A DNA stretch of 64,000 nucleotides from Candidatus Eiseniibacteriota bacterium (GTDB lineage: Bacteria > Orphanbacterota > Orphanbacteria > Orphanbacterales > Orphanbacteraceae). Positions 16,158 to 41,214 of this stretch are shown here, in pieces; the stretch's first letter is position 1; the number at the start of each line of letters is the position of its first letter. The notes beneath the pieces are model-generated. The model was given only the letters and a program-made list of their open reading frames with translations. It was not told the DNA's origin and made no database searches. The stretch spans positions 26,519 to 90,518 of the forward strand of contig JAFGGD010000031.1 of NCBI GenBank assembly GCA_016930695.1, written 5' to 3'. Both the position numbers and the translations under genes were made by a program.

Positions 16158-16252
16158 TCGAGTCGTGGGATCAGTCCGGGTGGGCCGGGATCCCAAAGAT
16201 CGAGCCTCGTCCGGCCCGAGAGATAAGATTCCCGACCTTGAGGAGCATCTCT

Positions 16253-17320
16253 ATGGCGACGATCAAGGACGTGGCCCGCGAAGCTGGCGTGTCGGTTGCC
16301 ACCGTTTCCCGTGTGTTCAATGACAGCCCACTGGTGAGTGAGATCACCACCAGCCACGTTCTCGAGGTGGCGCAACGGCTGGATTATTGGCCGAACGGAG
16401 CGGCGCGGAGCCTCAGCACCAATCGCACCGGCACGCTCGGTGTCGTCCTGCCCGACCTTTACGGTGAATTCTTCTCCGAGATCATCCGCGGGATCGACAC
16501 CGCGGCCCGCGAAGAGAAATACCAGATCCTCCTCTCCAGCTCCCACGCCGCCGAAGCGGAACTGGTTTCCGCGGCGCAGGCGATGCGCGGCCGGATCGAC
16601 GGGCTGATCGCCATGGCGCCTCACGTCGACTCCGCGAGATCGCTGGTCGATTTCGCACGGCACTTTCCCGTCGTCCTTCTCAACCCGGGAATGCCCGCGG
16701 AAAACTGCTCCGTCATCTCCATCGCGAATTTCGAGGGAGCCCGCGCCATGGTCCGCCATTTGATCGGGGTGGGCCACCGGCGCATCGCCATGGTGCTCGG
16801 CCCTTCAGGGAACGTGGACGCCGAGGAGAGGCGGAGGGGTTACCGCCGGGCGTTGGATGAAGAAGGGATCGAGGTCGATCCCGCCTTGGAAATCGAAGGC
16901 AATTTCGATCAGGAATCGGGCTACGAGAGCGCGGCCCATCTTCTCCGGCTCGATCCGCGCCCCACCGCGGTTTTCGCCGCCAACGACTGGATGGCCTTCG
17001 GACTGCTGAGCGCGCTCGCCGACGCGGGGATCCGGGTCCCGCAGGAGATGGCGATCACCGGTTTCGACGACATGAGCATCGCCGCCTTCCTCAGTCCTCC
17101 CCTCACGACCGTGCGGGTGGACGCGGTGGAGCTGGGGAAGAGGGCCGTGCAGCTTTGGTTCGACTCGATTCACGCTCGGGAAGAGGAGCGGTTTTTCGCG
17201 TATCAGGTCCTGCCGACCTCTCTCGTGGTTCGCGGCTCCTGCGGCGCGCCGAACGGAACGGCGGCGCCGGAACGTTCGGGCCGATGGACGAACCACGGGA
17301 GGGAAGAAGAACGGGAATGA
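16253..17320 (+). CDS. LacI-family transcriptional regulator.
   Basis: The N-terminal HTH MATIKDVAREAGVSVATVSRVFN is canonical. AGGAGC lies 6 nt upstream. A periplasmic-binding-fold sugar-binding core follows. Confidence 0.9.
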   Translation: MATIKDVAREAGVSVATVSRVFNDSPLVSEITTSHVLEVAQRLDYWPNGAARSLSTNRTGTLGVVLPDLYGEFFSEIIRGIDTAAREEKYQILLSSSHAAEAELVSAAQAMRGRIDGLIAMAPHVDSARSLVDFARHFPVVLLNPGMPAENCSVISIANFEGARAMVRHLIGVGHRRIAMVLGPSGNVDAEERRRGYRRALDEEGIEVDPALEIEGNFDQESGYESAAHLLRLDPRPTAVFAANDWMAFGLLSALADAGIRVPQEMAITGFDDMSIAAFLSPPLTTVRVDAVELGKRAVQLWFDSIHAREEERFFAYQVLPTSLVVRGSCGAPNGTAAPERSGRWTNHGREEERE

Positions 17321-17433
17321 GGACGGGGAGCCGGGCACGACGCCCGGCCATTTCTTTTCGCGTATTGCCGAACGGGGAAGGATCGATCGGTCTTCCGCTC
17401 CGGCGGGACCGGCGAAAGCAGGAGGATGGAGGA

Positions 17434-19329: not shown

Positions 19330-19418
19330 CGGGATCACCGGCGGGCGGGGGCGGAGGTCCGCCCCGCGCCCGCCGTGGAGGGAGGGGGCCGATCCCCTTC
19401 GGCGAGAACGGAGAGACG

Positions 19419-22085: not shown

Positions 22086-22090
22086 GCGAA

Positions 22091-25000: not shown

Positions 25001-25405
25001 GAGGTGTTCCTGACGCGTCCCTACGGCGCGGACGACGTCTTGGCCTTCCGGACAAGCGGCGAGCGGATCGACGAGGGGAAGGAAGAGGGGGCGGAGCTCG
25101 CCCCTTACGTGGTGCCCAATCCGTACGTGGGATCCGCCTCCTTCGAAGCGGAGAGGTACGCCACCTCCGGGCGGGGCGAGCGGCGGATCGAGTTCCGCGG
25201 CCTCCCCCGGGGCAGCACGATCCGGATCTACACGGTGACGGGGGAGCTGGTGCGGACGCTCCACCACGACGGATCGGACGACGGCGCCGTGGCCTGGGAT
25301 CTGCGCACCAAGGACAACCTCGACGTCGCGCCCGGGCTGTACATCTATCACGTCGACGCGGGCCGGGTCGGCACGCACGTCGGCAAGTTCGCGATCATCA
25401 AATGA
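22091..25405 (+). CDS. Large (1104 aa) secreted Asp-rich protein with a T9SS C-terminal sorting domain. Possible PorU-like protein or surface glycan-binding protein.
   Basis: The signal is LLGAAAALSLLCVS. Thrombospondin-type-3-like acidic Ca-binding repeats are present (DGIDNDEDGILNE; DEDMDWNPELHDVGADGVPETEDTGEGDGMP). The C-terminal domain is PNPYVGSASFEAE...IRIYTVTGELVRTL...GLYIYHV. It sits immediately upstream of the PorV-like gene. Confidence 0.5.
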   Translation: MRTGLFHSKKTREKGAGRRAKRLRLLGAAAALSLLCVSKPAGELQPLVSADERGRVDAERAGHHDAADLRTIFYNFGMVGDYPPDPGNVDLSVFHSAEVPKGSGMNYCDGITPFVLAKITQRNGLDAYIMETGFRERQGISPYYNRVMRFEPRPGYFQADPTLNLARSPAVSHDPRTWPYQWPDRMDDPDDPGWSGDWNGYFGKRAAADQESYTVMDDDFYDAWDFYPDSRDSTRHGLGLRIEVRGFQWSNPQASNVIFWHYDITNEGTTDYNDNIIFGLYMDSGVGGSALSCDGIYESDDDNAYFDKSSGLNLVYTWDKYGHGVDLSGKCGDTGYLGYAYLETPGAPLDGIDNDEDGILNERRDGGPGEKIVGRDAIRAWTSLYYDMDKFEETYGLLTERPAYKIGEWWTGDEDMDWNPELHDVGADGVPETEDTGEGDGMPTAGEPYFDETDLNESDMIGLTGFKMNRIRAGQGNPNPEVDGILFYMNDARWPERLYDQFTDPNAADRFDSALAANYNIGFLFASGPFILRAGQTERFSLALAYGANLGELRNTVKTVQQIYDANYQFAVPPPLPTLTAETGDGFVRLSWDDQAEHGFDPVTFTNDFEGYRIYRSTDPEFRDPRVITTGSGTGPIGNGRPIAQFDVADSIAGYSNQTWEGVAYWLGDETGITHTWTDSTVTNGRKYYYAVTSYDYGSDSLGFYPSENSINVSRTPRGGEILPQNVVAVRPEPKVTGYVRAETDTVAHREGRGSGEAEILVVNSNLVPDEHVFEIRFKTPSEDSLRAISYSLVDSTEGRTVFSRGMDLNGEGTGPVGDGMLPVVRTPATVFVDSAASGFVPGGPTNTRLKISYLEVLPINLRRPGFPDDLTVTFSDDVVDTSLAIFPLPAKPAKFRVVARAEEGDGNLDFRFRDVDGDGTLSDPSEYVDVVTYSDGLPGVPMVTWRVQLDTVGQGERGEMIPPAGGDVYEVFLTRPYGADDVLAFRTSGERIDEGKEEGAELAPYVVPNPYVGSASFEAERYATSGRGERRIEFRGLPRGSTIRIYTVTGELVRTLHHDGSDDGAVAWDLRTKDNLDVAPGLYIYHVDAGRVGTHVGKFAIIK

Positions 25406-25419
25406 GCGGCGGAAGAAAA

Positions 25420-26430
25420 ATGCGCTTCTTTACGATCGTCATCGCGCTCCTGATCCTGGCGTCGCCGGGGTGCGTCTTCGCCCAGAGCAAGACCGGGACG
25501 GCGATCGGGCAGTTCCTGCTCATCGAGCCGAGCGCGCGCTTCGCCGCCATGGGGAACGCGGGGGTGTCCGCGGCGGAGGGGATCCAGGGCGCCTATTACA
25601 ACCCCGCCGCCGTCGGCGCCCTCGATCGCCGGGAGCTGATGTTCACGCACAGCACCTGGCTCGCGGACATTTCCTACGACTACGCCGCGCTGGCGATTCC
25701 GGTGCGGTCGCTCGGGACGTTCTTCGCGGCGGTGACGTCTCTGAACTCGGGAGAGATGGACGTGCGGACGGTCGAGCAACCGCTCGGAACGGGGGAGCGT
25801 TTCGACGCGGCGGATCTGGCGTTCGGTCTCGGTTACGGGCGGCGGATTACCGACCGCTTCGACGCGGGAGTGCAGATCAACTATGTGGACCAGCGGATCT
25901 GGCACAGTTCCCTCCGCACGGTTACGTTGAATGTGGGCACTCTCTACCGGATCACCGAGGGCGGGCTCCGCATCGGGTCGAGCCTCGTGAACTATGGAAC
26001 GAAGGCCGGGTTCGGCGGGAGGGATCTCCGCATTCAGTATGACGCCGATACCGACATCTACGGCGACAACAGCTCCCTTCCCGCGGAGCAGCACACGGAG
26101 GAGTACGCCCTCCCCGTTCTGTTCCGCGTCGGCCTTCTCTGGCCGGTCCGGACCGGGGAGGAGCATCGGTTACTCACGGCGATCGACGCCTTCCACCCCA
26201 GCGACAACACGGAGAGCGTCAGCATGGGCGCGGAATGGATCTGGAAAGAGGCGTTTTCGGCGCGTGGCGGGTATCAAGACCTTTTCCAGCAGGACGCCGA
26301 GGTCGGTTGGACCTTCGGGCTCGGCTTCCGGCAGGTGATGGAGACCTACGGGTTCGATCTGGATTACGCCTGGGCGGACCATGGAAGACTGGAGGACACG
26401 CATCGCGTCACTTTCGTGGTGCGCTTCTGA
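25420..26430 (+). CDS. porV: PorV/LptO-family outer-membrane beta-barrel (T9SS shuttle protein-like).
   Basis: The signal peptide is MRFFTIVIALLILASPGCVFAQ. The N-terminal motif FLLIEPSARFAAMGNAGVSAAEGIQGAYYNPAA matches the conserved PorV N-terminus. Alternating beta-strand periodicity runs through to a C-terminal aromatic residue (VTFVVRF). The start could be the ATG at 25402 instead. Confidence 0.6.
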   Translation: MRFFTIVIALLILASPGCVFAQSKTGTAIGQFLLIEPSARFAAMGNAGVSAAEGIQGAYYNPAAVGALDRRELMFTHSTWLADISYDYAALAIPVRSLGTFFAAVTSLNSGEMDVRTVEQPLGTGERFDAADLAFGLGYGRRITDRFDAGVQINYVDQRIWHSSLRTVTLNVGTLYRITEGGLRIGSSLVNYGTKAGFGGRDLRIQYDADTDIYGDNSSLPAEQHTEEYALPVLFRVGLLWPVRTGEEHRLLTAIDAFHPSDNTESVSMGAEWIWKEAFSARGGYQDLFQQDAEVGWTFGLGFRQVMETYGFDLDYAWADHGRLEDTHRVTFVVRF

Positions 26431-26470
26431 CGGACGCCGCGAAGGCGGTCCCGGAAGGTAGGAAACAACG

Positions 26471-28051
26471 ATGAAACGAATGAAGTGGATGGTCGGAGCG
26501 CTCCTCCTCCTGACGGTGGCCGCGGCGGACGCGCAGATCACCGATGAGGCGCTTCTGGACTCGCTCCAGAGGACCGCTTTCGATTTTTTCTGGAATGAGG
26601 CGAATCCGACCACGGGATTGATCCGGGACCGGAGCGCATCCTGGTCCCCCTGCAGCATCGCTTCCACCGGGTTCGGCCTCACGGCGATCTGCATCGGCAT
26701 CGAACACGGTTGGATCACACGCGAGCAGGGGAGGGAGAGGATCCTGGCGGCACTGCGGACCTTCTGGAACGCGCCCCAGGGGAGCGGTTCGAGCGGCTTC
26801 GCGGGCTACAAGGGGCTCTTCTATCACTTCCTGACCATGGACACCGCGGAGAGAACCTGGGACTGCGAGCTCTCCACCATCGACACGGCTCTTCTCTTCG
26901 CGGGCATTTTCGACGCGAAGGAATATTTCGACGGGACCGATTCCCTCGACGTGGAGGTTCGCTCTCTGGCCGACTCGATCACCACACGGGCGGAGTGGGA
27001 TTGGATCCACTCCGGCTGGGGGATCCGGATGGGCTGGAAGCCGGACACCGGATTCTCCGGATACGGCGACTGGATCGGCTACAACGAGGCGATGATCCTC
27101 TACATCATCGCCCTCGGATCGCCCACGCATCCGGTGCCCGCCTACTCCTGGACCGCCTGGACGAGCGGCTACGACTGGCGGACCAACTACGGCTACACCT
27201 ACGTGGAGTTCCCGCCCCTCTTCGGCCACCAGTATTCGCACTGCTGGATCGATTTCCGCTGCATCCAGGACGCCTACATGCAGTCGAAGGGGATCGATTA
27301 TTTCGAGAACTCCCGGCGCGCCACGCTCGCCCAGAGGGCGTACTGCATCGACAATCCCGGCAACCACATCGGCTACAGCGACAGCCTCTGGGGAATCACC
27401 GCGGGGGACGGTCCCTTCGGCTACACGGCCCGCGGGGCGCCCCCCGGTCAGAACGACGACGGGACGATCACCCCCTCGGCGACGGTCAGTTCACTCCCCT
27501 TCGCGCCGGAGGTGGTCATGGCGGCCACCCGCAACATGTACAATGCGTACGGTTCCCAGCTCTGGATGGAGTACGGGTTCCGGGACGGTTTTAACCTCAA
27601 CTACGCCTGGTGGGGGCCGGATGTGATCGGCATCTCCGAGGGCCCCATCCTTCTGATGATCGAGAACTACCTGAACGGTTCGGTCTGGAGCCGGTTCACG
27701 CAGAACGACGACATCCGGGCCGGTCTGGAAGCGGCGGGATTCACCGGCTGTTTCGTCGCCGTGGACGGGCCGGCGGAGGAGGAGTCGCCGACGGCGCTCC
27801 TCGCCGGGAACCGGCCCAATCCCTTCCGGGGGGAGACCACCATCTGGTTCCGCATGCCGGAGAGGGGTTCGGCGAGGCTGACGGTCTACAACGTGGCCGG
27901 GCGCGAGGTCGCCCGCCTCTTCGACGGAGAGAGGAGCGCCGGCTTCCACCAGATCGAGTGGAACGGCGCCGGGCTTCCGAGCGGCGTGTATTACTACCGC
28001 CTCCAAACGGAGACGGAGACTTTCATAAAGAGGTGCGTGCTTCTGAGGTAA
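26471..28051 (+). CDS. GH144/DUF3131-like (alpha/alpha)6 glycoside hydrolase fused to a T9SS C-terminal sorting domain; paralogue of 2274..3743.
   Basis: The signal peptide is LLLLTVAAADAQ. It shares the motifs DTALLFAGIF, YNEAMILYIIALGSPTHP and DYFENSRRATLAQRAYCIDNPGNHIGYSDSLWGITAGDGP with its paralogue. The C-terminal domain is GNRPNPFRGETTIWFRMPERGSARLTVYNVAGREV...GVYYYRL. Confidence 0.65.
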   Translation: MKRMKWMVGALLLLTVAAADAQITDEALLDSLQRTAFDFFWNEANPTTGLIRDRSASWSPCSIASTGFGLTAICIGIEHGWITREQGRERILAALRTFWNAPQGSGSSGFAGYKGLFYHFLTMDTAERTWDCELSTIDTALLFAGIFDAKEYFDGTDSLDVEVRSLADSITTRAEWDWIHSGWGIRMGWKPDTGFSGYGDWIGYNEAMILYIIALGSPTHPVPAYSWTAWTSGYDWRTNYGYTYVEFPPLFGHQYSHCWIDFRCIQDAYMQSKGIDYFENSRRATLAQRAYCIDNPGNHIGYSDSLWGITAGDGPFGYTARGAPPGQNDDGTITPSATVSSLPFAPEVVMAATRNMYNAYGSQLWMEYGFRDGFNLNYAWWGPDVIGISEGPILLMIENYLNGSVWSRFTQNDDIRAGLEAAGFTGCFVAVDGPAEEESPTALLAGNRPNPFRGETTIWFRMPERGSARLTVYNVAGREVARLFDGERSAGFHQIEWNGAGLPSGVYYYRLQTETETFIKRCVLLR

Positions 28052-29040: not shown

Positions 29041-30738
29041 TTACTCCCCGAAGCCGGGAAGAATCACGCCGCGTTTTTCGTCGTAAAGATAGGGGCGCCT
29101 CTCCGGGAAGCATTCCTCGAGGAGTGTCCGATTCCTCTCCGGGCCCAGATCGTAGGCGAAGACGCGCTCCGCCGCCGCGAGATCGGGGTCGTTGTTCAAA
29201 AAGTCGATCTCCGGGTTGTGCGCCCGTCCGTAGCGGAGGAAGAGGATCGAGCCGGCGGGCGTCTTCCTCTCCACCTCGGAGTAGAAACGGGCGTGGGCGC
29301 GCGCCTTCGCTCTTCGATACTCCACGTGGAAGGGGAGGCGCGCCGCCGCGAGGCCGGTGCCCAGGAGGAAGAGGAGGATCACCGACCAGGCGGCCGCCGG
29401 TCGCCCCGCCCGCCGCGCCGCGGCGAGGGCGGAGCGCGCCCCGAGAAGGGGGAGCAGGAGGAGCGCCGGGGTGATCTCGTGGTAGTAACGCCCCCAGGGG
29501 AACCAATAGAGGAGGTAGGCGCCGTGGGAGAGCGCGATGAAAAGAAGCGTCCAGAGCGCCGTCCTCCTCCCGCCGGGGAGGGCGATTAGAGGAAGGAGGA
29601 AGAGGAAGAGAAGAGGGGGAGACGACTCTCCGGCGGTCATCGGGATCCGCATCCGGAAAAGAGTCCCCAGCGCGAACCCCGGCGTGTAGCGCAGTCGGTT
29701 CGGGTAGAGAATCGTTTCATTATATAGGCGCTTCCCGGGGCCGACCGGACGCTCCTCGATTTCCTCCTCACCGGAGGCGAAACCGAAGGTGTCCTCCGGC
29801 TGGCTCGTCCTGGCGTAGAGCTGCCACGGCGTGACCAGGGGGGAGCCTGTGACCGCCCGGTTGTAGGCGAGGCCCGTTCCGATCAGGAAGAGGAGAGGGA
29901 TCCCCCCCGCCGCGATCGCCGCCGGCCGGAGGAGAGCCTTCCGCGCCTCCCGCCGCGATCCGATCAGCGCCGCCAGGAAGAGCGCGAGAACGGAGGCGTT
30001 CAGAGGGCGCGTCAGCCAGGCGAGGCCGAGGGCGGTTCCCGCGAGGGCCGCGTTCGCCCTCCCCCCGCGCTCCACGGCGCGCGCCGCGAAGTAGAGGGTT
30101 GCGAGAAGGAAGAGGAGATTCCCGGTCTGGGAGAGGTATGTGGTCGCGCTCTCCACCTGCGCCGGCGCGATCCCGAAGAGGAAAACGAGGAGCAGGGAGC
30201 CCCCGGCGCCGATCACCCTCTTTGCGAGAAGGCCGAGAAGAACCAGGGAGAGACCAGACGCGAGAAGAGGACCGATCCAAGGAATACCGGCCGCCGAACC
30301 GGGAAGGAGGAGGAGCGCATGGCCGGGCGGATACTTGGATGCGTAGACCGGGTCGGTCAATATATGGAAGGCGTCGAAGGCGACCCTGTCCGGTGGTGGG
30401 GGGAAGAAAAGCCGCCCGGCGAGAAAGGACTTCGCCTGGAAGAGGTAGGCGAACTCGTCGTGCACCACCGGTTGGAAACCATATCCCCGTCCCCCCCAGA
30501 GCCAGGCGTAGAAGACTGTGAGAAGAAGGGCGAGGAGCGGCAGGAGAAGGGGGAACCGGTTGTCCGCCCACGACTCGATCCGGTCCGCAGGGGGGGCGAG
30601 GCGCGCCGGAAGCGGTAGGAGGGAGAGGAGTGCGACCGCGACCACGGCGACCGCCGCCGCGAGATTCCCGCCGAAACCGATCGTCGCCGCGAGGAAGAGA
30701 AAGGCGGCGACCGGAATGATCCGGCGGACCTCCGACAC
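29041..30738 (-). CDS. Polytopic membrane glycosyltransferase (GT39/GT83-like, ArnT/PMT_2 family).
   Basis: GGGAGGG lies 5 nt upstream of the GTG at 30738. At least 10 hydrophobic helices are present. The N-terminal periplasmic loop motif is HDEFAYLFQAKSFLAG. Confidence 0.6.
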   Translation of the reverse strand: MSEVRRIIPVAAFLFLAATIGFGGNLAAAVAVVAVALLSLLPLPARLAPPADRIESWADNRFPLLLPLLALLLTVFYAWLWGGRGYGFQPVVHDEFAYLFQAKSFLAGRLFFPPPPDRVAFDAFHILTDPVYASKYPPGHALLLLPGSAAGIPWIGPLLASGLSLVLLGLLAKRVIGAGGSLLLVFLFGIAPAQVESATTYLSQTGNLLFLLATLYFAARAVERGGRANAALAGTALGLAWLTRPLNASVLALFLAALIGSRREARKALLRPAAIAAGGIPLLFLIGTGLAYNRAVTGSPLVTPWQLYARTSQPEDTFGFASGEEEIEERPVGPGKRLYNETILYPNRLRYTPGFALGTLFRMRIPMTAGESSPPLLFLFLLPLIALPGGRRTALWTLLFIALSHGAYLLYWFPWGRYYHEITPALLLLPLLGARSALAAARRAGRPAAAWSVILLFLLGTGLAAARLPFHVEYRRAKARAHARFYSEVERKTPAGSILFLRYGRAHNPEIDFLNNDPDLAAAERVFAYDLGPERNRTLLEECFPERRPYLYDEKRGVILPGFGE

Positions 30739-30826
30739 GATTACCCTCCCATGGTCAACAAACACAATTACAATAGATTGTGTAACAAACCTCAACCGTA
30801 TTCTAGGCGATGGTGCCTCTTTCTAC

Positions 30827-31228
30827 TCATCCCTCGCAAAGCTCGATCAGGATTCCTCCCGTCCCCTTGGGATGAAGAAAGGCGATCTTCTTCCCCTCCG
30901 CGCCGAGACGCGGCTTCTCGTCCACCAGGGGGATGCCCGCCTCCTTCAACTCGGCGAGCGCACCCTCGATATCCTCGACATGGATGGCGAGGTGGTGAAT
31001 ACCGCTCCCTCTCTTGGCGAGGTACTTCCCGATCGGCCCCTCGTCCCGCGTGCTCTCCAGGAACTCGACCGACGTTTCGCCCACGCGGAAGCAGGTCGCC
31101 CGCACCCCCTGGTCCGGAATCTCCTCGCAGTGAGGCTCCCGACCATGGAAGAGCACCTTCAGAGCGGGACGCATCCCCTCCAGATCCTGAATCGCCACGC
31201 CCACATGATCGATTCGCTTGACTCGCAA
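30827..31228 (-). CDS. mce: Methylmalonyl-CoA epimerase (VOC/glyoxalase family).
   Basis: MRVKRIDHVGVAIQDLE...IHHLAIHVEDIEGALAELKEAGI; the size is 133 aa. Confidence 0.8.
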   Translation of the reverse strand: MRVKRIDHVGVAIQDLEGMRPALKVLFHGREPHCEEIPDQGVRATCFRVGETSVEFLESTRDEGPIGKYLAKRGSGIHHLAIHVEDIEGALAELKEAGIPLVDEKPRLGAEGKKIAFLHPKGTGGILIELCEG

Positions 31229-31297
31229 CGGTTCACTCCAATCGTTTCGTGTGTTTTCGAAGACCCTCGCGCCCTCTTCTCGCGCGCGCGGGCGATC

Positions 31298-32419
31298 TTA
31301 CTCCGGGGTCTCTTCTCTTTTCGGCGAGCATTCGAACAGTTCGAGTAACTCGCCGGCGGCGGTGGTCGCCGGGAGGCGCCCCTCCGTCACCTCTTTCTCC
31401 AGTTGGGGGAGGCGTCGGCGCACCTCCGGATGCAAGAGGAATAGATCCCGCAGGCGGTCGCGCACCAGGGCGTGCATCCATTCCCTCTCCTGCGCCCGGC
31501 GGCGGCGCTCGAAAGCGCCGGAGTCGCGCGTGATCTCGACGAACCGCTCGATCGTCCGCCAGATCCCCTCGACCCCCTCGCCGGTCAGGGCGGAGGCGGC
31601 GAAGGCCTTCGTCGTCCATCCCTCCGTCGCCGGCCGCAGATAATGGAGCGCCTTCTCGTATTCCGACCGCGCCCTCTCGGCGGCGTCCCGGTTCCCGCCG
31701 TCCGCCTTGTTCACGAGCACCGCGTCGGCGATTTCCATGATCCCCTTCTTCATCCCCTGCAGCTCGTCCCCCGCGCCCGGGATCAGGAGGAGGAGGAAGA
31801 AGTCGACCATGGAGCGGACCACGATCTCGTTCTGTCCGACGCCGACCGTCTCGATCAGGATGACGTCGTACCCGGCCGCCTCGAAGAGGATCACCGTCTC
31901 CCTTGTTTTTCGGGTGACGCCGCCGAGCGTTCCGCCGGAGGGGGAGGGGCGGATGAAGGCGCCGGGATGGTTCGCCAGGTGTTCCATGCGGGTCTTGTCG
32001 CCGAGGATGCTCCCGCCGCTCACGCTGCTGGACGGATCGACGGCGGTCACCGCCACGCGATGGCCGCGGCCGGCCAGCTCCATGCCGACCGTCTCGATGA
32101 AGGTGCTTTTCCCGGCGCCGGGAACACCGGTCACGCCGACGCGGATCGATCGGCCCGCGCGGGGGAGAAGCGACTGCAACACCCCGCGCGCCCGGGCGAA
32201 GTCGGCGGGGGCGTTCGACTCGACGAGGGTGATCGCGCGGGCGAGCCGGTTGCGGTCGCCGGAGAGAACCCCCTCCACGTACTCCTCCGTGGAGAGGGGC
32301 GCCCTCTTCGCACCGGTCCGGAGCGGGGGAGGAGGGGGCTCCACTCCCTTGCGGACCTGCAGGGTCGGCTTGGGCTCTTCCCTCTCGGGATCGTTGTGGT
32401 TCGTTTCGTCGCGCGTCAC
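31298..32419 (-). CDS. meaB: Methylmalonyl-CoA mutase-associated G-protein chaperone MeaB/ArgK.
   Basis: The P-loop is GVTGVPGAGKSTFIE. VNKAD is the NKxD motif. The gene lies directly downstream of mutB. Confidence 0.9.
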   Translation of the reverse strand: MTRDETNHNDPEREEPKPTLQVRKGVEPPPPPLRTGAKRAPLSTEEYVEGVLSGDRNRLARAITLVESNAPADFARARGVLQSLLPRAGRSIRVGVTGVPGAGKSTFIETVGMELAGRGHRVAVTAVDPSSSVSGGSILGDKTRMEHLANHPGAFIRPSPSGGTLGGVTRKTRETVILFEAAGYDVILIETVGVGQNEIVVRSMVDFFLLLLIPGAGDELQGMKKGIMEIADAVLVNKADGGNRDAAERARSEYEKALHYLRPATEGWTTKAFAASALTGEGVEGIWRTIERFVEITRDSGAFERRRRAQEREWMHALVRDRLRDLFLLHPEVRRRLPQLEKEVTEGRLPATTAAGELLELFECSPKREETPE

Positions 32420-32423
32420 GTCT

Positions 32424-34622
32424 CTACTCTTCCGGCTCTCCGTCGTAGCCGAGCCGCCTGTTCAGCTCCCGCAGGAGTTCCCGCGCCGCGTCGGGGATCA
32501 CCGTTCCCGGCCCGAAGACCGCCGCCGCCCCCTGTTCGTAGAGGTAGGCGTAGTCCTGCGCGGGAATGACCCCGCCGGCGATCACCAGGATGTCTTCCCG
32601 GCCGAGCTTCTTCAACTCCTGAACCAGCTGCGGCAGGAGCGTCTTGTGTCCCGCCGCCAGGCTGCTCATGCCGACCATGTGGACGTCGTTTTCCACCGCC
32701 TGCCGCGCCGTCTCCTCCGGCGTCTGGAAGAGCGGCCCCACGTCGACGTCGAAGCCGAGATCGGCGAAGGCGGTGGCGACCACCTTGGCGCCGCGGTCGT
32801 GCCCGTCCTGTCCCATCTTGGCGACCAGGATCCGCGGGCGCCGCCCCTCGCGCTCCTCGAAACGCTCGATCATTTTACGGATCTCTCGAATGGCGTCCTC
32901 TCCCGCGTATTCGGAGGAGTAGACCCCCGAAACGGTCCTCGTCTCCGCCTTGTGGCGTCCCCACACGCTCTCCAGCGCGTCGCTGATCTCGCCGAGCGTA
33001 CAGCGCGCCCGCGCCGCCTCCACGCTGAGGGCGAGGAGGTTTCCCTCGCCGGTTTCGGCCGAACGGGTGAGCGCCTCGAGCGCCGCCTTCACGGCGCCGG
33101 CGTCCCTCTCCTCCCTCAGCCGCCGGAGGCGCTCGATCTGCCGCCGACGCACCTCCGTGTTGTCCACCTCGAGGATCTCCAGGGGATCCTCCTTGTCGAG
33201 GCGATAACGGTTCACGCCGACGATCGTCTCCCTCCCGGAGTCGATGTGCGCCTGCCGGCGCGCCGCCGACTCCTCGATCCGCATCTTGGGGATACCCGTC
33301 TCGATCGCCTTCGCCATGCCTCCCAGCTTTTCCACCTCTTCGATGTGCTCCCAGGCGCGTTTCCGGATCCGGTCGGTGAGCGCCTCGAGGTAGTACGAGC
33401 CTCCCCAGGGATCGACGATCCGGCAAAGGCCGGTCTCTTCCTGCAGGTAGATCTGCGTGTTGCGGGCGATCCGCGCGGAGAAGTCGGTGGGGAGGGCGAT
33501 CGCTTCGTCCAGCGCGTTGGTGTGCATCGACTGTGTATGGCCGAGGGCGGCCGCCATCGCCTCGATGCAGGTGCGGACCACGTTGTTGAAGGGGTCCTGC
33601 TCCGCCAGGCTCCATCCCGAGGTCTGGCTGTGCGTGCGGAGCGCCATCGACTTGGGGTTCTTCGGGTGGAAACGTTTCATCAGCGTCGCCCAGATCACCC
33701 GGGCGGCGCGCATCTTCGCCACCTCCATGAAGTAGTTCATTCCCTGGGCCCAGAAGAAGGAGAGCCGCGGGGCGAAGGCGTCGATGTCCATGCCGGCGGC
33801 GATGCCGGTCCGAACGTACTCGAGTCCGTCGGCGAGGGTGTAGGCCAGTTCCAGGTCCGCCGTGGCGCCCGCCTCCTGCATGTGGTAGCCGGAGATGGAG
33901 ATGCTGTTGAACTTGGGCATCCGCTCCGCCGTGTAGGCGATGATGTCGGCGATGATCCGCATGCTCGGGAGGGGGGGATAGATGTAGGTGTTGCGGACCA
34001 TGAATTCCTTCAGGATGTCGTTCTGAATCGTGCCGGCCAGTTCCTCGAGCGCCGCCCCCTGCTCCAGCGCGGCGACGATGTAGAAGGCCATCACCGGCAG
34101 GACCGCGCCGTTCATGGTCATGGAGACGGACATCCGGTCGAGGGGGATGCCGTCGAAGAGGATCTTCATGTCCAGGATCGAGTCGATCGCCACGCCCGCT
34201 TTTCCCACGTCGCCGATGACGCGCGGGTGGTCCGAGTCGTAGCCCCGGTGGGTGGCGAGGTCGAAAGCGACGGAGAGGCCCTTCTGGCCGGCGGCGAGAT
34301 TGCGCCTGTAAAAGGCGTTCGACTCTTCGGCGGTGGAGAAGCCGGCGTACTGGCGCACCGTCCAGGGGCGCATCACGTACATGGTCGCGTAGGGTCCCCG
34401 CAGGAAGGGGGGGATGCCGGCGGTGTAGCCGATGTGCTCCAGCCCCTCCGTATCGGCGGGGCCATAGAGCGGTTCCACGTCGATTTGCTCGTTCGTTCGC
34501 CAGACCAGGTCCTCGGGGTCGCGACCGGTCTCCTTCTTCACGCGCCGCCCCCACTCTTCCCGGGAAAAGGCGGGGTCCGGAGCGCTCCACTCCATGTTGC
34601 GGTAGTCGGGGATGCGGCTCAT
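32424..34622 (-). CDS. mutB: Methylmalonyl-CoA mutase large (alpha) subunit with a C-terminal B12-binding domain.
   Basis: [13 protein letters not shown]...[53 protein letters not shown]. The C-terminal DxHxxG-type B12 domain is [19 protein letters not shown]. The ATG at 34622 overlaps the mutA stop (ATGA). Confidence 0.9.
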
Positions 34623-36790
34623 CGCTTCACTCCGATCGTGTCGGCCAGCGCGCGGAGAGAGGCGAGCGCGTCGGCGCGCAGGTGGATGAACTCGTCCACG
34701 CCCGCTTCGCGGAAGGCGTCGGCGTGTTCCTTCGGGAAGCCGGCGAGGATGATCCGCCGGGGCGGGTTCGGAGCGGCTCGGAGCGCCGCGACGATCGCCG
34801 GGACCGCTTCCGGGTAGCGGTCGTCGGTGGAAACGATCGCCACCGCCGGCGCTTCGGACGCGAGCGCCTCCCGCGCCGCGTCGCCGGGGGTTTCGAAGGA
34901 GCGGTCGTGTATCGTTTCGAATCCGCCGATCTCGTAGAAGGATCGCGTGAACTCCAGACGGGCCATGTACGCCGACGGAGGGCCGATGTTGGCGAAAAAG
35001 ACCTGCGGCGGCGCGCCGGAGCGGGCGCGCCACTCGAGCACCGTCGCGCGCAACACCTCGTAATCGTGGGCGGACCGGAAGGTCGGGATCGGCTCCACCC
35101 GCGTTTCCTCGTCCTCGCCGCGCCGGAGCATGCGGGTGAATTCGCCGATGGTGGCGCCGTGGAGCGCCGCGTCAGCCGCCGCCTCGAAGAGGTCCTCCGG
35201 TTTCGATCGGAGGATGGTGCCGAGCTTCTCCAGCACGCGGATCTGCTCGGCGTGCTCCGGCGAGACGCGAAGCTCGCGGAGGCGCGCGGCGCGCCGGGCG
35301 TGGATCGACTCATAATCGGGAAAACGACGGACCGGCGGCCCCTCTTCCCGGTTCGGATAGCGGTTCACGCCGATCAGCACGTCGGTCCGGACGGCGACCC
35401 TCTTCCGGCGGTTCCGCGCCGTCTCGGCGATCTTGCTCTGCGGAATCCCGTTCAGGAGCGCCGCAGGCATCCCCCCCGCTTCTTCGATCTCCCGGAAGAG
35501 ATCCCAGGCGCGGCGGGCCATCTCGTGGGTGAGCGACTCCACGGCCCAGCCGCCTCCCGCCGGATCGATCACGCGGTCGAAGCGGCATTCCTCGCGCAGG
35601 ATCGTCTGGGTGTTGCGCGCGATCCGCCGGGCCGTGTCTCCGGGGAGTCCGAGGAGCCGGTCGAAGGGCTCCACGTGCAGGCTGTCGCAGCCTCCCATCA
35701 CGGCGGCGAAGGCCTGCGTGGTCCCGCGGAGAATGTTGACGTGTCGATCGAATGTGGTGCTGTCCACCGAGGAAGTGCGGGCGTGAATGTGCATGCGGGC
35801 GGCCAGGTCGCCGCGGCCGCACCCCTCCAACGCCCGGTGCCAGAGGAGCCGGGCCGCGCGGAACTTGGCGATCTCCGGGAAGAAGCCGGTCCCGGCCGAG
35901 AGGCCGAACAGGATCCGGGGCGCGACGATCTCCACGCCGAGGCCGCGCTGCTCGAGCCGGCGGAGCGCCTCCACCGCCGAGGCGAGCGTGAAGGCGAGTT
36001 CTTGGACGGCGTCGCCTCCTCCCTCGTGCCAAGCGAAACCGTAGGCGGCGAGGGTGCGGAGCATCGGCGCGTTCTCCGCCGCCCAACGGGTGAGGTGGGC
36101 CAGCTCATCGTAGGCGCGGTCGAGGGAAACGGGGAGCCGTCCGTGAACGGCCAGGCCCGTCATCGGATCCATGCCGACGGAGCCGCGGAGGCGCGCGGGG
36201 TCCGTTCCCCTTTTCCGGGCGAGCGCGATCAGAAGCGCCGCCACCGGCATCGCCGCCGAACCGGGTTGGAGATAGACAGGCGTGCGCTCCAGATCCACCC
36301 CTTCGAGAGCGCGGGAGAGGCCGATCACCGAAGCGATCGACGTGCCGCCCCGCCCCACGTCCCCCGGTTCCGCCTGATCCGGATCGAGACCGGCCTGGGC
36401 CGCTCGGTCCAGGATCAGGTTCACCGCGGTTTGGCCCCTCTCCAGATCGTGCCGGAGCGCCCGGTTGAACTCGTCGTAAGTGGGGAAGGGGAGTTCCTGC
36501 GCCACGTACCAACCGTCCGCCCGATAGCCGGCGGCGCGGCATCCGCGGAGAAAGGGAGCTTCGCCCGGCGCCGCGCCGAGTCCGGGAAGATCCTTCACGT
36601 CTTCGGCGTCGTAGATGGGGCGGAGGGTGATCCCTTCATCGGTTTCGGTGAAGAGTGTTTTCTCGAAGGGGCGACCCTTGAGGAGGCGGATCGCCTCCTC
36701 GCGCCACTCCTCCGGTCCGGGGAGGGGGAAATCGTCGCGAAGCGGGATCGAAGCGATCCGATCCGCGCCGCCGCTTACGTCGTCAGCCAT
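34619..36790 (-). CDS. mutA: Methylmalonyl-CoA mutase small (beta) subunit.
   Basis: The N-terminus is [34 protein letters not shown] mutase TIM-barrel-like core lacks the B12 His motif. It is translationally coupled to mutB. Confidence 0.85.
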
Positions 36791-37157
36791 CGTGTCGACC
36801 ACCCATCGGTTGCGGGGCGGCGGGCGCTCGGCCCGCGCGGCCCTTTTCCTGGCGAACCGGAAGGGGAGCCCGCGCCGGGACGTTCCCCTCTCGACCGGCC
36901 GCGGCGGGTCGTGAAGCCGGGTACGCGTCGCCGCGTGTGATTTTTTTCGCCGGAGCGGGGATCGGCTCGCCTCGGGATTCTCCCGGGAAGCGCGGCGGCG
37001 GGCCATCCCGTTCCGGATCGATCCGGACGGGGCGCGGGAACGATTCGCCGTCACGCGGCGCTCGCCGTGATCTCCCGCGCGGAATCGGGGAAAGTGTAGC
37101 ACATGGATGGGCGGGGGGTAACCTCGCCGAAGGGGCATCGCTCGGCGGGGAAACGGG

Positions 37158-37187: not shown

Positions 37188-37273
37188 CCTCACACCAGTC
37201 AAACGGAATCCATGATCGACGGGGTTCCTCATCGCGGGTTTCCCCGCCCTAGAACCGCACAGAGGTAGTGAAG

Positions 37274-38419
37274 ATGCACTTTGGGTTGACCGAAGAACAG
37301 GAAATGATCCGGAACATGGCGCGCCAGTTCGCCTCCGATATCCGCGAGGAAGCGCAGAAGGCGGAGGATGAAGGGGTTTTCTCACGGGAATTGGCGGGCA
37401 AGCTCGCCCGGAACGGTTTCCTCGGCATGTGCGTGCCCGAGGAATACGGCGGCCAGGAGATGGATTTTCTCAGCTACCTGATCGCCACCGAGGAGATCTC
37501 CCGGGCGGCCGCCGGACAGGGCATGCTCGTCGGGCTCCATAACTCGCTCCTCAACTTCCCGCTGCAACACTTCGGCACGGAGGAGCAGAAGCGGAAATAC
37601 CTGGTCGGTTCGGCGACGGGCGCGCTGCTCGGCTGCTACGCCCTCACCGAGCCGGAGGCGGGATCGAACGCCACCAACCTGAAGACGATCGCCCGCAAGG
37701 ACGGGGACGACTATGTGATCAACGGGCGGAAGATCTTCATCACCAACGGATCGGTGGCGGATTTCGTCATCCTTTTCGCGAGGCTCGAGCGGAACGGCAA
37801 GCTCACCCGCCACGTTTCCGCCTTTCTCATCGACAAGGGAACTCCCGGGTTCTCCGTCGGCACGGTGGAACAGAAGATGGGCCTCAAGAGTTCTCCCACG
37901 GCGGAGCTGATCTTCGAGGACGTGAAGGTCGGTCCCGAGTCGCTTCTCGGTCCCGAGGGGAAGGGGCTTCGTGTGGGGGTGGACACGCTTCACGGCGGCC
38001 GGATCGCGGTGGCGGCGTCCGGCGTCGGCATGGCCGAGGAGGCTTTCGTCTGCGCCCGCGCCTACGCGCTCGAGCGCGAGCAGTACGGTCACAAGATCGC
38101 CGACTTCCAGGGGATTCAGTGGATGCTCGCCGACATGCGGACCGAGATCGATATGGCCCGGCTGGTCACCTACGACGCGGGCTGGCGGAAGCAGGAGGGG
38201 CTTCCCTACGCGCGGCAGGCGTCGCAGGCGAAGCTGGTCGCTACCGAGACGGCCACCCGCTGCGCGGGCCGCGCCATCCAGATTCACGGCGGGTACGGAT
38301 ACATGCGGGAGTACCGCATGGAGCAGATCTACAGGGACGCCAAGGCGGCGGAGATCTTCGAGGGAACCTCGGAAGTGCAGAGGAGCACCATCGGCCGGGA
38401 TGTGCTGAAGGGGGATTAG
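37274..38419 (+). CDS. Acyl-CoA dehydrogenase (short/branched-chain, butyryl-CoA dehydrogenase-like).
   Basis: MHFGLTEEQEMIRNMARQFA...YALTEPEAGSNATNL...GGYGYMREYRMEQIYRDAKAAEIFEGTSEVQR is the canonical ACAD start and end. Confidence 0.85.
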   Translation: MHFGLTEEQEMIRNMARQFASDIREEAQKAEDEGVFSRELAGKLARNGFLGMCVPEEYGGQEMDFLSYLIATEEISRAAAGQGMLVGLHNSLLNFPLQHFGTEEQKRKYLVGSATGALLGCYALTEPEAGSNATNLKTIARKDGDDYVINGRKIFITNGSVADFVILFARLERNGKLTRHVSAFLIDKGTPGFSVGTVEQKMGLKSSPTAELIFEDVKVGPESLLGPEGKGLRVGVDTLHGGRIAVAASGVGMAEEAFVCARAYALEREQYGHKIADFQGIQWMLADMRTEIDMARLVTYDAGWRKQEGLPYARQASQAKLVATETATRCAGRAIQIHGGYGYMREYRMEQIYRDAKAAEIFEGTSEVQRSTIGRDVLKGD

Positions 38420-38437
38420 CTCCGCGGGAACGACGCG

Positions 38438-38476
38438 TTGGTTCGGGGCCGCCTTCCTCGGGAGGCGGCCTTTTCG
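38438..38476 (+). terminator. Rho-independent terminator after the acyl-CoA dehydrogenase gene, lying between converging genes.
   Basis: The hairpin ggccgccttcc-tcg-ggaggcggcc is followed by TTTTCG. Confidence 0.55.
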
Positions 38477-38488
38477 CGCCCGCCGGTT

Positions 38489-40411
38489 TCAGCGCGGTTC
38501 GGCGGTTTCGCCGTTTTCGGCGGCGGCGCGTCGTAGCTCGTCGAGCGCCCCCGCCGCCATCTTCCCGATCCGTGTCCCCGGCGCGACGGAGACCGCCCCC
38601 TGGAAAGCGCCTATCGCTTCGCGTGTCAATCCCAGGTCTCTCAGCGTCAACCCCAGGTTGTACGCCGCGTCCTGCATCCTCCCGTCTTTTTCAAGACCGC
38701 GCAGGAACCAGTGGACCGCCTCCCGGTTCTCGCCCCCGCGCCGGTAGGCCATGCCGATCCAGAAGTACCCCTTGGCGTATGCGGGAGCGCGCTCCAGCAG
38801 CGAGACGAAGAAATCGACCGCGTCGGCGTAACGCCCGGTGGTGATCAGCAGGTTGCCGATGTTGTCGTAGATTCGTTGGCGGCCGGGGCAGATCTCGGCA
38901 AGCTCGTAGAGCACCTCCAGGGAGGAGTCCAACTCGCCGTAGGTGTAGTAGGCCATAGCCCGGTGAAGACCGTCGATGCAGGGGACCAGATCCTTGGGGT
39001 CCTCCTCCGTTTCCGTCGCCGATGCGTCCGCCGGCCCGTCCCTCTGGATGTACCCGATCGCTTCGAGACGCTCCCGCGTTTCCTCGTCGATCTCCTCCTC
39101 CTCCCGCTCCTCACTCGGTTTCCACTCGTCGACGAAATCCTGCATCTCCCGGGCCCGGCTTCGCTCCAGCATAAACAGGTTTTCCGTTTCGCCCGGATCG
39201 GCCGCCAGGTTGTACAGCTCCGGCTTGGGCGCCTCGATGTACTTCCAGTCCCCATCCTGGACGCCGAAGAGCCGGCTCGCGGCGTGGTGACCCGGCGAAT
39301 AGGTTTCGACGTAATTGACCAGCTTCCGGTTTCGCTCCTCCCCCAGCAGGAGGGGGACCAGGCTTTTCCCCTGCGTCTCTTCCGCGCCGGGGAGGCCGGT
39401 CAGCTCGAGGAGGGTGGGAAAGACATCCACGCTTCGGGCCGGCGACTCGACCAGCCGCGGCCAAGCGGGGGGGAGGGCGCCGCCGCCGATGATCAGGGGG
39501 ATGCGCAACGTGGATTCATAAAGGAAAGTGTCGTGGTACATCTCGCGGTGCTGGCCGAGTCCCTCGCCGTGATCGGCGGAGAGCACGATCAGCGTTCTCT
39601 CCCAGAGACCCTTCTCGCGCAGCATCCACTCCAGCTCGCCGATCGCCCGATCCAGAAAGGCGACCTCGCCGTCGTACTGGCGATCCGGCCAGCTCCTTTC
39701 GGGAAAGAGACCGTCGTAGGGGGGAGGCGGGTCGTAGGTTTCGTGGGGATCGAAATAGTGGAGCCAAAGGAAAAAGGGCTCCGAGCCTCCCTGTGCGAGC
39801 CACGCGCGGACGCGGGCGTTCACCTCGTTCGCCCGGCGCTGATCCGCGTTCCGGGAGATCTGGCTCCCCCTCGGGCCCCGCGCGATCCGCTGGTCGTAGA
39901 TGGTGAAAAGATCGGGCATCGTGTCGTCGTACTCGTCGAACCCTTGGTCGAGGCCGTACTTCTTATCGAGCTGGAAGGAGGAGACGATCGCCGCGGTCCG
40001 ATAACCCCCGGCGCTCAGGCGCTCCGCCAGGGTGATCCTCTCCGGGTCCAGACTGTAGGCGCCGTTGTCGTGGACTCCGTGGCGGGAGGGGGAGAGCCCC
40101 GTGAGAAAGCTGGTGTGGGAGGGGAGAGTGAGAGGGACGCTGGCGACCATTTCCGGAAAGAAAACCCCCTGCCGTGCGAGACGGTCCATGTTCGGGGTGA
40201 GGGCTCCCGGGTATCCATATGTGGCGAGCCTGTCCGCCCGGAGGGTGTCGATGGTGATCAGGATCAGATTCACGCCGGGCAGAAGAGGGGGGCGCGCGCA
40301 TCCCAGGGGAAGGAAGAGGAGGAGGGTCGCGCAAACGCCCCACCACACCCCACCCTTTGTGCGGCGGGACCGCCTTTTTTTGTTATTACTAATTTTGATA
40401 GTGCATTGCAT
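38489..40411 (-). CDS. Sulfatase-fold (alkaline-phosphatase superfamily) lipoprotein with a C-terminal TPR domain. Thr and His replace the FGly-motif Cys and Arg.
   Basis: The lipobox is LFLPLGC. The sulfatase blocks are LILITIDTLRADRL, FLWLHYFDPHETY and SADHGEGLGQHREMYH. The nucleophile motif reads T-L-P-S-H-T-S-F-L-T-G where a sulfatase would have C/S-x-P-S-R. TPR repeats occur at the C-terminus. A longer ORF reaches 40489, but the Met at 40411 gives a proper signal peptide. Confidence 0.7.
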   Translation of the reverse strand: MQCTIKISNNKKRRSRRTKGGVWWGVCATLLLFLPLGCARPPLLPGVNLILITIDTLRADRLATYGYPGALTPNMDRLARQGVFFPEMVASVPLTLPSHTSFLTGLSPSRHGVHDNGAYSLDPERITLAERLSAGGYRTAAIVSSFQLDKKYGLDQGFDEYDDTMPDLFTIYDQRIARGPRGSQISRNADQRRANEVNARVRAWLAQGGSEPFFLWLHYFDPHETYDPPPPYDGLFPERSWPDRQYDGEVAFLDRAIGELEWMLREKGLWERTLIVLSADHGEGLGQHREMYHDTFLYESTLRIPLIIGGGALPPAWPRLVESPARSVDVFPTLLELTGLPGAEETQGKSLVPLLLGEERNRKLVNYVETYSPGHHAASRLFGVQDGDWKYIEAPKPELYNLAADPGETENLFMLERSRAREMQDFVDEWKPSEEREEEEIDEETRERLEAIGYIQRDGPADASATETEEDPKDLVPCIDGLHRAMAYYTYGELDSSLEVLYELAEICPGRQRIYDNIGNLLITTGRYADAVDFFVSLLERAPAYAKGYFWIGMAYRRGGENREAVHWFLRGLEKDGRMQDAAYNLGLTLRDLGLTREAIGAFQGAVSVAPGTRIGKMAAGALDELRRAAAENGETAEPR

Positions 40412-40518
40412 TAATTGATTAAACCAAATTCTTGCCCCCTCGCGTCCCCGGAAAGACGAGGAGGAGGGGAAAAAAGTGAAAATTCCCATTTTTTCGCTCT
40501 ATAGAGGCGAAAAAAGTA

Positions 40519-40580
40519 TTGACGCCTATTTCGATGGGGCCTAATGTGGGCCCAGGTGGGTGGAAGTGGCGCATAATGGG
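40519..40580 (+). promoter_or_regulatory. Pmra-like promoter for the dcw cluster with an MraZ-box direct-repeat array.
   Basis: TTGACG at 40519-24, a 17-nt spacer, TAATGT at 40542-47. Four direct repeats sit at exact 10-bp phasing: GTGGG (40546), GTGGG (40556), GTGGC (40566) and ATGGG (40576). This matches the GTGGG-N5 MraZ operator architecture described in E. coli, Bacillus and Mycoplasma. Confidence 0.5.
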
Positions 40581-40749
40581 TTTTCTGAGCGTTCGCCACA
40601 ACCGCAAAAAACGTCCGGGATTGATCGCCTTTCGCTGATAGCCCTCCTGAGCGCTTTGCGAGCGCTCCACCCGATGGGGCCAGTATAGGAACGGCGACCC
40701 GGAAGCGCAACCTCCGGCGCGCCCCTTCCACCACCGCATCGGAGGCGAA

Positions 40750-41214
40750 GTGGGCAGACTACTCGGTCGCTACCAGGCCACATTGGACGAGAAGGGGAGA
40801 ACCAACATCCCCGCCCGCATCCGGAGGGTTCTCTCACCCGACCCGGAATCGCCGATCATCATCACCCGCGGATACGATGACTGTCTCGCCGTCTATCCCC
40901 TCGCCGAATGGGAGGCGGTGGAAAAAGACCTTCGCGCCCTCCCCTACAACGTCGGCAACACTCGTCTCTTCGCGCGCGAAATGGCCTCCCACGCCGTGGA
41001 GGCCGGACTGGACCGGTCGGGGCGGATCCTGATCCCCCGGGAACACCGCGAGTGGGCTCACCTGGAGAAGGACATTCTCGTCCTCGGCGTCATCACGCAT
41101 CTTGAACTGTTCAATCCTGAAATATACGAGCGGTATCGATCCGGATACGGCATGACCTACGAAGGGGTCGCCGAGGAGATGCAGAAGTACCGCTCCACCG
41201 GCCGGCAGGAATGA
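40750..41214 (+). CDS. mraZ: Transcriptional regulator MraZ.
   Basis: GTG start with GGAGG upstream. MGRLLGRYQATLDEKGRTNIPARIR, followed by the second DxxGR repeat (GLDRSGRILIPREHRE). Confidence 0.85.
   Translation: MGRLLGRYQATLDEKGRTNIPARIRRVLSPDPESPIIITRGYDDCLAVYPLAEWEAVEKDLRALPYNVGNTRLFAREMASHAVEAGLDRSGRILIPREHREWAHLEKDILVLGVITHLELFNPEIYERYRSGYGMTYEGVAEEMQKYRSTGRQE

Follow-up and report, generated by a model that had tools for sequence, protein, structure and literature searches.

What does a protein do that has kept the scaffold of a sulfatase and replaced the residues of sulfatase chemistry? This question is raised by a gene in a 64,000-nucleotide stretch of contig JAFGGD010000031.1 from Candidatus Eiseniibacteriota bacterium (positions 26,519 to 90,518; hereafter the window, meaning the whole stretch of DNA that was analysed). 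Its product is a predicted lipoprotein in which a sulfatase-type catalytic domain of the alkaline phosphatase superfamily is followed by a tetratricopeptide repeat (TPR) domain, and in which Thr and His stand at the positions of the Cys/Ser and Arg of the formylglycine motif. Proteins matching PF00884 are routinely counted as sulfatases in genome annotation. We found that the Thr/His motif marks a very large and widespread protein family. On balance, and with slightly better than even confidence, we favor the idea that the window protein would be a lipid-anchored, metal-dependent phosphate-ester hydrolase that uses a Thr nucleophile on the S1 sulfatase scaffold and is docked by its TPR domain. 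Features of the gene and of the rest of the window are collected in Table 1, and residue numbers throughout refer to the 619-amino-acid (aa) form that starts at GTG 40348.

Results

Nucleophile motif

A first-pass annotation of this DNA had proposed that the formylglycine motif of the protein carries Thr and His in place of Cys and Arg. The string quoted for this motif, VPLTLPSHTSFLTG, is found in the open reading frame (ORF), with T74 at 40127-40129 and H78 at 40115-40117, and so are the other two quoted strings, ITIDTLRADRL (D34 at 40247-40249) and FFLWLHYFDPH (H202 at 39743-39745). In a phmmer alignment to the sulfatase 7stt, T74 falls where the formylglycine residue would be and H78 takes the place of the motif Arg, which confirms that the protein has T-L-P-S-H instead of C/S-x-P-x-R. 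In an alignment of 63 sequences that are 33-56% identical to the query, T74, P76 and H78 are invariant. Because the motif is invariant in these sequences and family-wide (see below), the substitution is neither chance nor a sequencing error.

A genuine Cys- or Ser-containing CxPxR motif elsewhere in the protein would contradict this assignment, and it was looked for. The sole further match to [CS]-x-[PA]-x-R is SWPDR, and it was rejected because 38-43 of the 63 homologues have a gap over the insertion that contains it. After the lipobox, no Cys occurs anywhere in the catalytic domain. In the 7stt alignment, the sulfate-binding GKWH segment (Lys and His) is replaced by S-S-F-Q, H272 stands in for the Lys behind the DHG/DNG motif, and H202 falls on the conserved sulfatase His. 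The lack of a C/S-x-P-x-R motif and these replacements agree with the earlier claim that the motif is not convertible to formylglycine and indicate that the window protein cannot be a formylglycine sulfatase. According to the SulfAtlas paper, Thr is found in 30 of the 59 seed sequences of PF00884, and the type discussed there is the LtaS-like TxNxE (PMC5066984).

Residues of the active site

Besides the three motif residues, D34, T35, R37, D39, H197, D200, H202, E228, D259, H260, E262, E269, H272 and Y277 are invariant in the 63 sequences. T35 occupies the second Asp/Gln position of sulfatases. The active-site set of EfAS, a sulfatase of Enterococcus faecium, consists of D20, Q21, C61, R65, K110, H112, H220, D311, H312 and K324, in which K110/H112 is the sulfate-binding pair and K324 the distal Lys (PMC12421950). 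Compared with EfAS, the family retains the primary metal ligands (D34, D259 and H260) and the His of the 'PH' segment (H202), but substitutes the nucleophile, the Arg, both Lys and one His. H272 lies at +12 from the His of the DH motif, as K324 does from H312 in EfAS.

Some of the replaced or added residues find counterparts in phosphoethanolamine transferases. An hhalign comparison with Escherichia coli EptA placed H197 on 'vlH', H202 on 'gsH', D259-H260-G-E262 on 'DHGE' and H272 on 'ylH', and the spacings of H197, H202, E262 and H272 are identical in the two proteins. T74 fell one column off the catalytic Thr in the GTATA segment of EptA and D34 fell on a different residue; the EptA equivalences of these two rest on position in the motif. 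From the motif spacing, we take the EptA-aligned positions to correspond to H390, H395, D465/H466/E468 and H478 of MCR-1, with H390 as the presumed equivalent of H197. In MCR-1, the first zinc is bound by E246, T285, D465 and H466 and the second by H395 and H478, with E468 hydrogen-bonded to H478, and the authors of that study state that the second-site positions vary in sulfatases (PMC5216409). D200 is an additional invariant Asp two residues before H202, where the EptA counterpart is Ser. The second metal site of alkaline phosphatase and NPP has the composition Asp-His-His, and by analogy D200, H202 and H272 would give the family a second site of this composition.

The spacing of +21 between T74 and N95 equals that between T79 and N100 of PafA (PafA positions from the title of PDB entry 5too). 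An hhalign comparison with a PF01663 protein encoded at a relative's locus, L006, aligned just 67 columns and did not clarify the second metal site.

Fold, signal sequence and TPR domain

Both parts of the sulfatase fold, the N-terminal domain and the C-terminal subdomain, are present. The Pfam models PF00884 (Sulfatase) and SGSH_C match with 139.5 and 54.8 bits; PF01663 (Phosphodiest) matches with 74.3 bits, mainly over the N-terminal ~70 residues, and is not the top-scoring model across the whole catalytic core. Over the N-terminal 118 residues there are matches both to sulfatases (E 1e-13) and to Xanthomonas NPP (2gsn, E 1e-8). None of the curated NCBIfam sulfatase models reached its cut-off (arylsulfatase, 151 vs 481; choline-sulfatase, 137 vs 433; Mn-arylsulfatase, 75 vs 850), nor did PehA (116 vs 900). 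The hhalign matches to EptA (E 7e-9) and OpgB (E 3e-6) start at residues 238 and 158 of these proteins, respectively.

The segment before the catalytic domain, of 17-38 residues, is signal peptide plus lipobox only, and no polytopic membrane domain was found in the window protein or in any family member examined. The Pro at -3 of the lipobox is non-canonical. A Cys directly behind the hydrophobic segment occurs in all full-length close homologues (P0001-P0021), and lipidation of the window protein is predicted from its lipobox. Distant family members have an ordinary signal peptide or a single N-terminal membrane anchor.

Several Pfam TPR families span the C-terminal ~130 residues, and a structure model has helices at residues 455-612 with predicted confidence scores (pLDDT) > 90. 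Consensus TPR structures gave strong matches to this domain and the TPR model of YbgF a weak one. The TPR tail and the lipoprotein signal of the first-pass annotation are thus both real, as judged from Pfam, the conserved Cys of the homologues and the structure model. In sequence the TPR part shows little conservation, and it varies in length, yet it is almost always present in the family; a docking rather than a catalytic role fits this pattern. The acidic linker that joins the catalytic domain to the TPR domain, where model confidence is low, contains two short invariant motifs (38990-39088).

The reading frame stays open upstream to ATG 40489. The NCBI protein record (P0001), which comes from a Candidatus Eisenbacteria metagenome-assembled genome and is named 'sulfatase-like hydrolase/transferase', is 100% identical to the window ORF and begins 21 codons downstream of ATG 40411, so that the gene has two candidate starts, 40411 or 40348. 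The G+C content at third codon positions is 0.81, as in real genes of the window. No promoter or terminator was detected in scans of 38300-40800, and Rfam and tRNA scans of the entire window gave no matches.

Distribution of the family

At E <= 1e-10, 7,598 proteins were scored as homologues, a figure that matches to the TPR part have inflated, and the best 120 were listed. The pattern P-x-T-L-P-[SA]-H-x3-[LIMF]-T-G is present in 114 of these best 120; the strict pattern was not found in the remaining six, at least one of which is an N-terminally truncated sequence. When the catalytic domain alone was searched against 1.84 billion representatives at 50% identity, the best 150 matches all had E < 1e-82. 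Among them, Thr is at the nucleophile position wherever the motif is readable, the His is nearly invariant in homologues with a readable motif, and both 'H-x-x-D-x-H' and 'DHGE...H-x-E-x-x-H' are kept in 131 of 142 representatives. In species-representative genomes, relatives are encoded by 455 stretches, and the best 79 loci were examined; 72 of them have the T...H motif, and in 7 none was recognised. The motif had been treated as a quirk of this one protein, which these counts do not bear out.

Carriers among the best 79 loci include members of Eisenbacteria, Gemmatimonadota, Planctomycetota, Myxococcota, Verrucomicrobiota, Spirochaetales, Fermentibacteria, Acidobacteriota (Holophagae, Thermoanaerobaculia, Aminicenantes and Polarisedimenticolia) and Gammaproteobacteria, the last including the cultured Marinicella sediminis and Pseudomarimonas arenosa. 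The family spans more than ten phyla, and this breadth, together with the motifs kept in most representatives, argues for retained catalysis across it. The median length past the nucleophile is 638 aa, and nearly all members have a long C-terminal TPR extension; from these sequences, TPR coupling appears to be near-obligatory. Longer architectures arise from tandem duplication of the catalytic and TPR unit, from extra TPRs or, in one case, from fusion with a prolyl isomerase; in P0141, a rotamase domain is fused to the catalytic domain. P0121-P0123, of 1,300-1,550 aa, have two catalytic plus TPR units, and tandem duplications of family genes occur at L045, L048, L051, L057 and L065. At L006/L007 (6020-12212), the family occurs in a split version, a catalytic-only gene of 431 aa followed by a separate TPR gene. 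No study of the family was found in the open-access literature.

Genomic context

The gene stands alone between a convergent and a divergent neighbour. An acyl-CoA dehydrogenase gene (37268-38419, forward strand) converges on its 3' end, and mraZ-rsmH-ftsL-ftsI-murE-murF-mraY diverges from it, starting at 40750. Both the mraZ and the acyl-CoA dehydrogenase neighbours are kept in 4 of the 4 closest genomes (50-59% identity) and in 0 of 75 other loci. The intergenic region shared with mraZ (40349-40749) is unusually AT-rich near 40375-40500 and contains the stretch CCACTTCCACCCACC, which recurs in a related form upstream of mraZ in L008, L010 and L011; this stretch may be an MraZ operator. In an alignment of the mraZ-proximal intergenic regions of five genomes, no convincing shared element was found except a short CCACCC-rich stretch.

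At other loci the neighbours differ. A gene for a SurA-like PPIC-type prolyl isomerase adjoins the family gene in 21 of the best 79 loci, in several phyla. There are one or two of these SurA-like lipoprotein genes, in Holophagae, Thermoanaerobaculia, Gammaproteobacteria and Verrucomicrobiota (L024, L034, L041, L043, L050, L056, L063, L078, L079, L083, L085, L086 and others). Other recurrent neighbours in the best 79 loci are FG-GAP/UnbV_ASPIC proteins (9 loci), C25 peptidases (6) and spermine-synthase-like membrane proteins (6). All four associations belong to paralogues outside the orthologue group of the window gene. At L006/L007, genes for ATP sulfurylase and APS kinase are followed by the family gene and then by its split version, with two PF01663 phosphodiesterase genes nearby.

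The first-pass annotation had also considered a link to a neighbouring locus for beta-1,2-glucans. A cluster of the glycan-utilisation type at 10720-28051 of the window, which comprises the GH1, GH94, LacI, CBM9, TonB-dependent receptor and PF10091 genes of Table 1, is consistent with beta-1,2-glucan breakdown; the ORFs of 1,104 and 265 aa lie within it or beside it. We rejected the link because of distance, orientation and lack of conservation: the cluster, at 10.7-28 kb of the window, is more than 10 kb off, belongs to separate transcription units and is not conserved in the four closest genomes. Between it and the gene lie the PMT_2 gene, the gene of the glyoxalase-fold protein, MeaB and the two methylmalonyl-CoA mutase genes.

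Table 1. Features of the sulfatase-fold/TPR gene and of the rest of the window
Feature	Position	Strand	Remarks
Sulfatase-fold/TPR lipoprotein coding sequence	38489..40411	-	640 aa from ATG 40411; NCBI start GTG 40348 (619 aa)
Predicted signal peptide and lipobox L-P-L-G-C	40298..40411	-	Basic n-region KKRRSRRTK, hydrophobic core, Cys at 40298-40300
Catalytic domain, alkaline phosphatase superfamily, sulfatase type	39104..40273	-	Includes C-terminal subdomain
D34-T-L-R-A-D39, first metal-ligand Asp motif	40232..40249	-	D34, T35, R37, D39 invariant
T74-L-P-S-H78 nucleophile motif	40115..40129	-	Replaces C/S-x-P-x-R; aligns to 7stt formylglycine motif; invariant; family-wide
N95	40064..40066	-	21 residues past Thr74; Asn in 57/63
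H197-Y-F-D200-P-H202, His/Asp/His cluster	39743..39760	-	Candidate second metal site; H197, D200, H202 invariant
D259-H260-G-E262-...-H267-x-E269-x-x-H272	39533..39574	-	Asp/His metal ligands and His at sulfatase Lys position
Linker motif D-x-E-T-x-E-[KR]-L-x-[AS]-[LI]-G-Y	39050..39088	-	Residues 421-433; L428, G432, Y433 invariant (63 sequences)
D-P-K-D motif, TPR entry	38990..39001	-	Residues 450-453; D450 61/63, P451 63/63, K452 62/63
TPR domain	38513..38986	-	Nine helices, ~four repeats and capping helix; Pfam TPR_2, TPR_8, TPR_1, TPR_16, others
GH1	10720-12120	-	
GH94 protein	12098-15985	-	1,295 aa, two supersandwich stretches
LacI regulator	16019-17320		
CBM9 protein	17155-19329		Type IX secretion system (T9SS) sorting tail
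TonB-dependent receptor	18951-22085		
ORF, 1,104 aa	22091-25405	+	Gene-like codon bias; no Pfam match at E <= 1e-5
PF10091 'glucoamylase'-type glycoside hydrolase	26471-28051		T9SS tail
ORF, 265 aa	28172-28969	+	Gene-like codon bias; no Pfam match at E <= 1e-5
PMT_2 (ArnT-like) membrane glycosyltransferase gene	29041-30795	-	
Glyoxalase-fold protein	30827-31297	-	Propionate/methylmalonyl-CoA cluster, with MeaB and the two mutase genes
MeaB	31298-32419	-	
Two methylmalonyl-CoA mutase genes	32424-35033, 34619-37138	-	

Discussion

We propose that the formylglycine sulfatase scaffold has been kept in this protein and that its chemistry has been replaced. Thr74 would act as nucleophile, with D34, T74, D259 and H260 holding a divalent metal that activates it. 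The cations that bind sulfate have been lost, and the cluster of H197, D200, H202 and H272, with E262, lies by alignment at the position of the second zinc of EptA and MCR-1, which we presume to match the second metal site of NPP and alkaline phosphatase. A covalent phospho-Thr intermediate would form, and a phosphate diester or monoester would be hydrolysed at the periplasmic face of the membrane, with the C-terminal TPR domain docking the enzyme to a protein partner or to a protein-borne substrate. What the analysis shows is the fold, the replaced residues and their invariance, the breadth of the family, the lack of a membrane domain and the gene neighbourhood; the identity and number of the metals, phosphoryl instead of sulfuryl chemistry, hydrolysis instead of transfer and the substrate are inferred. 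Phosphoryl (or phosphonyl) transfer through phospho-Thr is preferred to sulfate-ester hydrolysis because the Thr is invariant, the primary metal site is kept, the sulfate-binding cations are lost and the His/Asp cluster is gained.

The preference for hydrolysis is weighed chiefly against a phosphotransferase of the EptA, LtaS or OpgB kind, in which Thr74 would pick up phosphoethanolamine or phosphoglycerol from a membrane phospholipid and hand it on to a glycan, lipid or protein of the envelope. The first-pass annotation had suggested a Thr-nucleophile phosphotransferase or phosphodiesterase of this type. Its chemical part stands, in that the residues match Thr-nucleophile phosphoryl-transfer enzymes; its structural part does not, since no polytopic membrane domain is present. 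As far as we know, all transferases of this kind that have been characterised handle the lipid donor through a polytopic membrane domain at the N-terminus, and the lipid anchor would have to stand in for that domain here. Sulfatases also give a far stronger profile match than EptA and OpgB do. Phospho-alcohol transfer is disfavored because there is no domain to present the lipid and because D200, by H202, would complete a hydrolase-type Asp-His-His set where EptA has Ser. Soluble or anchored members of the superfamily, such as NPP, PafA, sulfatases and phosphonate monoester hydrolases, are hydrolases as far as we know. A phosphoesterase is thus favored on sequence grounds and a phosphotransferase is less likely; we regard the transferase explanation as unlikely but worth keeping in mind. 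Two further explanations have smaller chances. The highest overall matches of the protein are to sulfatases, and in the locus of one distant relative the sulfate-activation genes adjoin the family gene, as might be expected if it were still a sulfatase or sulfuryl-transfer enzyme in which Thr or a metal-activated water had replaced formylglycine. However, the sulfate-binding Lys/His pair and the second Lys are replaced, the NCBIfam sulfatase models stay far below their cut-offs, the sulfate-activation neighbours are confined to one lineage, and we know of no Thr-nucleophile sulfatase; we consider this the most improbable of the explanations. It is hardly more probable that the protein has no catalytic function and serves as a scaffold or ligand binder, with a retained alkaline phosphatase fold and with TPRs that organise periplasmic partners. 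Such a role of a retained fold has reportedly been discussed for PbgA/YejM. It would predict the opposite of the observed pattern, in which the presumed catalytic residues are all invariant across phyla at 33-56% identity and the TPR part varies.

Several points weigh against the phosphoesterase that we favor. The highest overall similarity is to true sulfatases, and the set of active-site residues fits phosphoethanolamine transferases about as well as hydrolases. The geometry of the second metal site is deduced from sequence equivalences only, and the D-x-H spacing of this candidate site is unlike the D-x3-H of NPP. The context of the window gene gives no clue to a substrate, and no measured activity of any family member was found in the open-access literature.

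At a more speculative level, the family may be an intermediate between sulfatases and phosphoryl-transfer enzymes, with a Thr and a two-metal site, that is recruited through its TPRs and works with SurA-like chaperones in removing or remodelling a phosphate-linked modification of envelope proteins or cell-wall polymers. In Eisenbacteria, it would be tied to the adjacent cell-division and cell-wall cluster. We consider this extended scheme doubtful. The SurA-like prolyl isomerases that recur beside family genes and the almost constant fusion to TPRs do suggest an undescribed envelope function.

The motif is common and conserved, so it holds no surprise at the level of the single gene; the interest lies in an uncharacterised family. 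The Thr type that the SulfAtlas paper discusses for PF00884 proteins is the LtaS-like TxNxE, and the family appears to be a clade with a Thr nucleophile on a sulfatase scaffold, fused to TPRs and free of a membrane domain. At 50% identity it comprises no fewer than 150 clusters, with members in Acidobacteriota, Eisenbacteria, Planctomycetota, Myxococcota, Gammaproteobacteria and further phyla. If counted as sulfatases, its members would inflate estimates of the sulfatase content of soil and sediment metagenomes. The family may also be a natural case of a joint swap on one scaffold, from formylglycine to Thr, from cationic residues to His and probably from one metal to two, which bears on the interconversion of sulfatases and phosphatases in the alkaline phosphatase superfamily.

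Comparison with known systems

Among the closest known systems are the S1 sulfatases and phosphonate monoester hydrolases, examples being E. coli AslA, EfAS (9koq) and S1_7 of Formosa agariphila (6hhm). Compared with the S1 sulfatases, the family has Thr for the Cys/Ser nucleophile, His for the motif Arg, Thr for the second Asp/Gln, Ser/Gln for the Lys/His pair and H272 for the distal Lys (K324 in EfAS). H197 and D200 are additional invariant residues, and the lipoprotein signal and the TPR tail are extra.

With EptA, EptC, MCR-1, LtaS/LtaP and OpgB, the family shares the Thr nucleophile, the acid/Asp/His metal site, His-x4-His and DHGE...His, whereas it lacks their N-terminal polytopic membrane domain. 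The surroundings of the Thr also differ, being TLPSH in the family and GTxTA or TxNxE in these phosphoethanolamine and phosphoglycerol transferases, which in turn are without the C-terminal sulfatase subdomain and the TPR tail of the family.

The T-x-P-x-H motif with Asn at +21 is shared with NPP (Xanthomonas NPP and the ENPPs) and PafA, which are PF01663 proteins, but the family has a sulfatase-type fold overall and a sulfatase-type second half of the catalytic domain. The second-site ligands of NPP are spaced D-x3-H plus a distant His; the candidate second site of the family is D-x-H plus a His 12 residues past DHG. NlpI, CpoB/YbgF and LpoA are lipoproteins or periplasmic proteins whose TPR modules dock other envelope proteins, and the family resembles them in having a TPR module on an envelope lipoprotein. 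To our knowledge, none of them has a catalytic domain of the alkaline phosphatase superfamily, as the proteins described here do.

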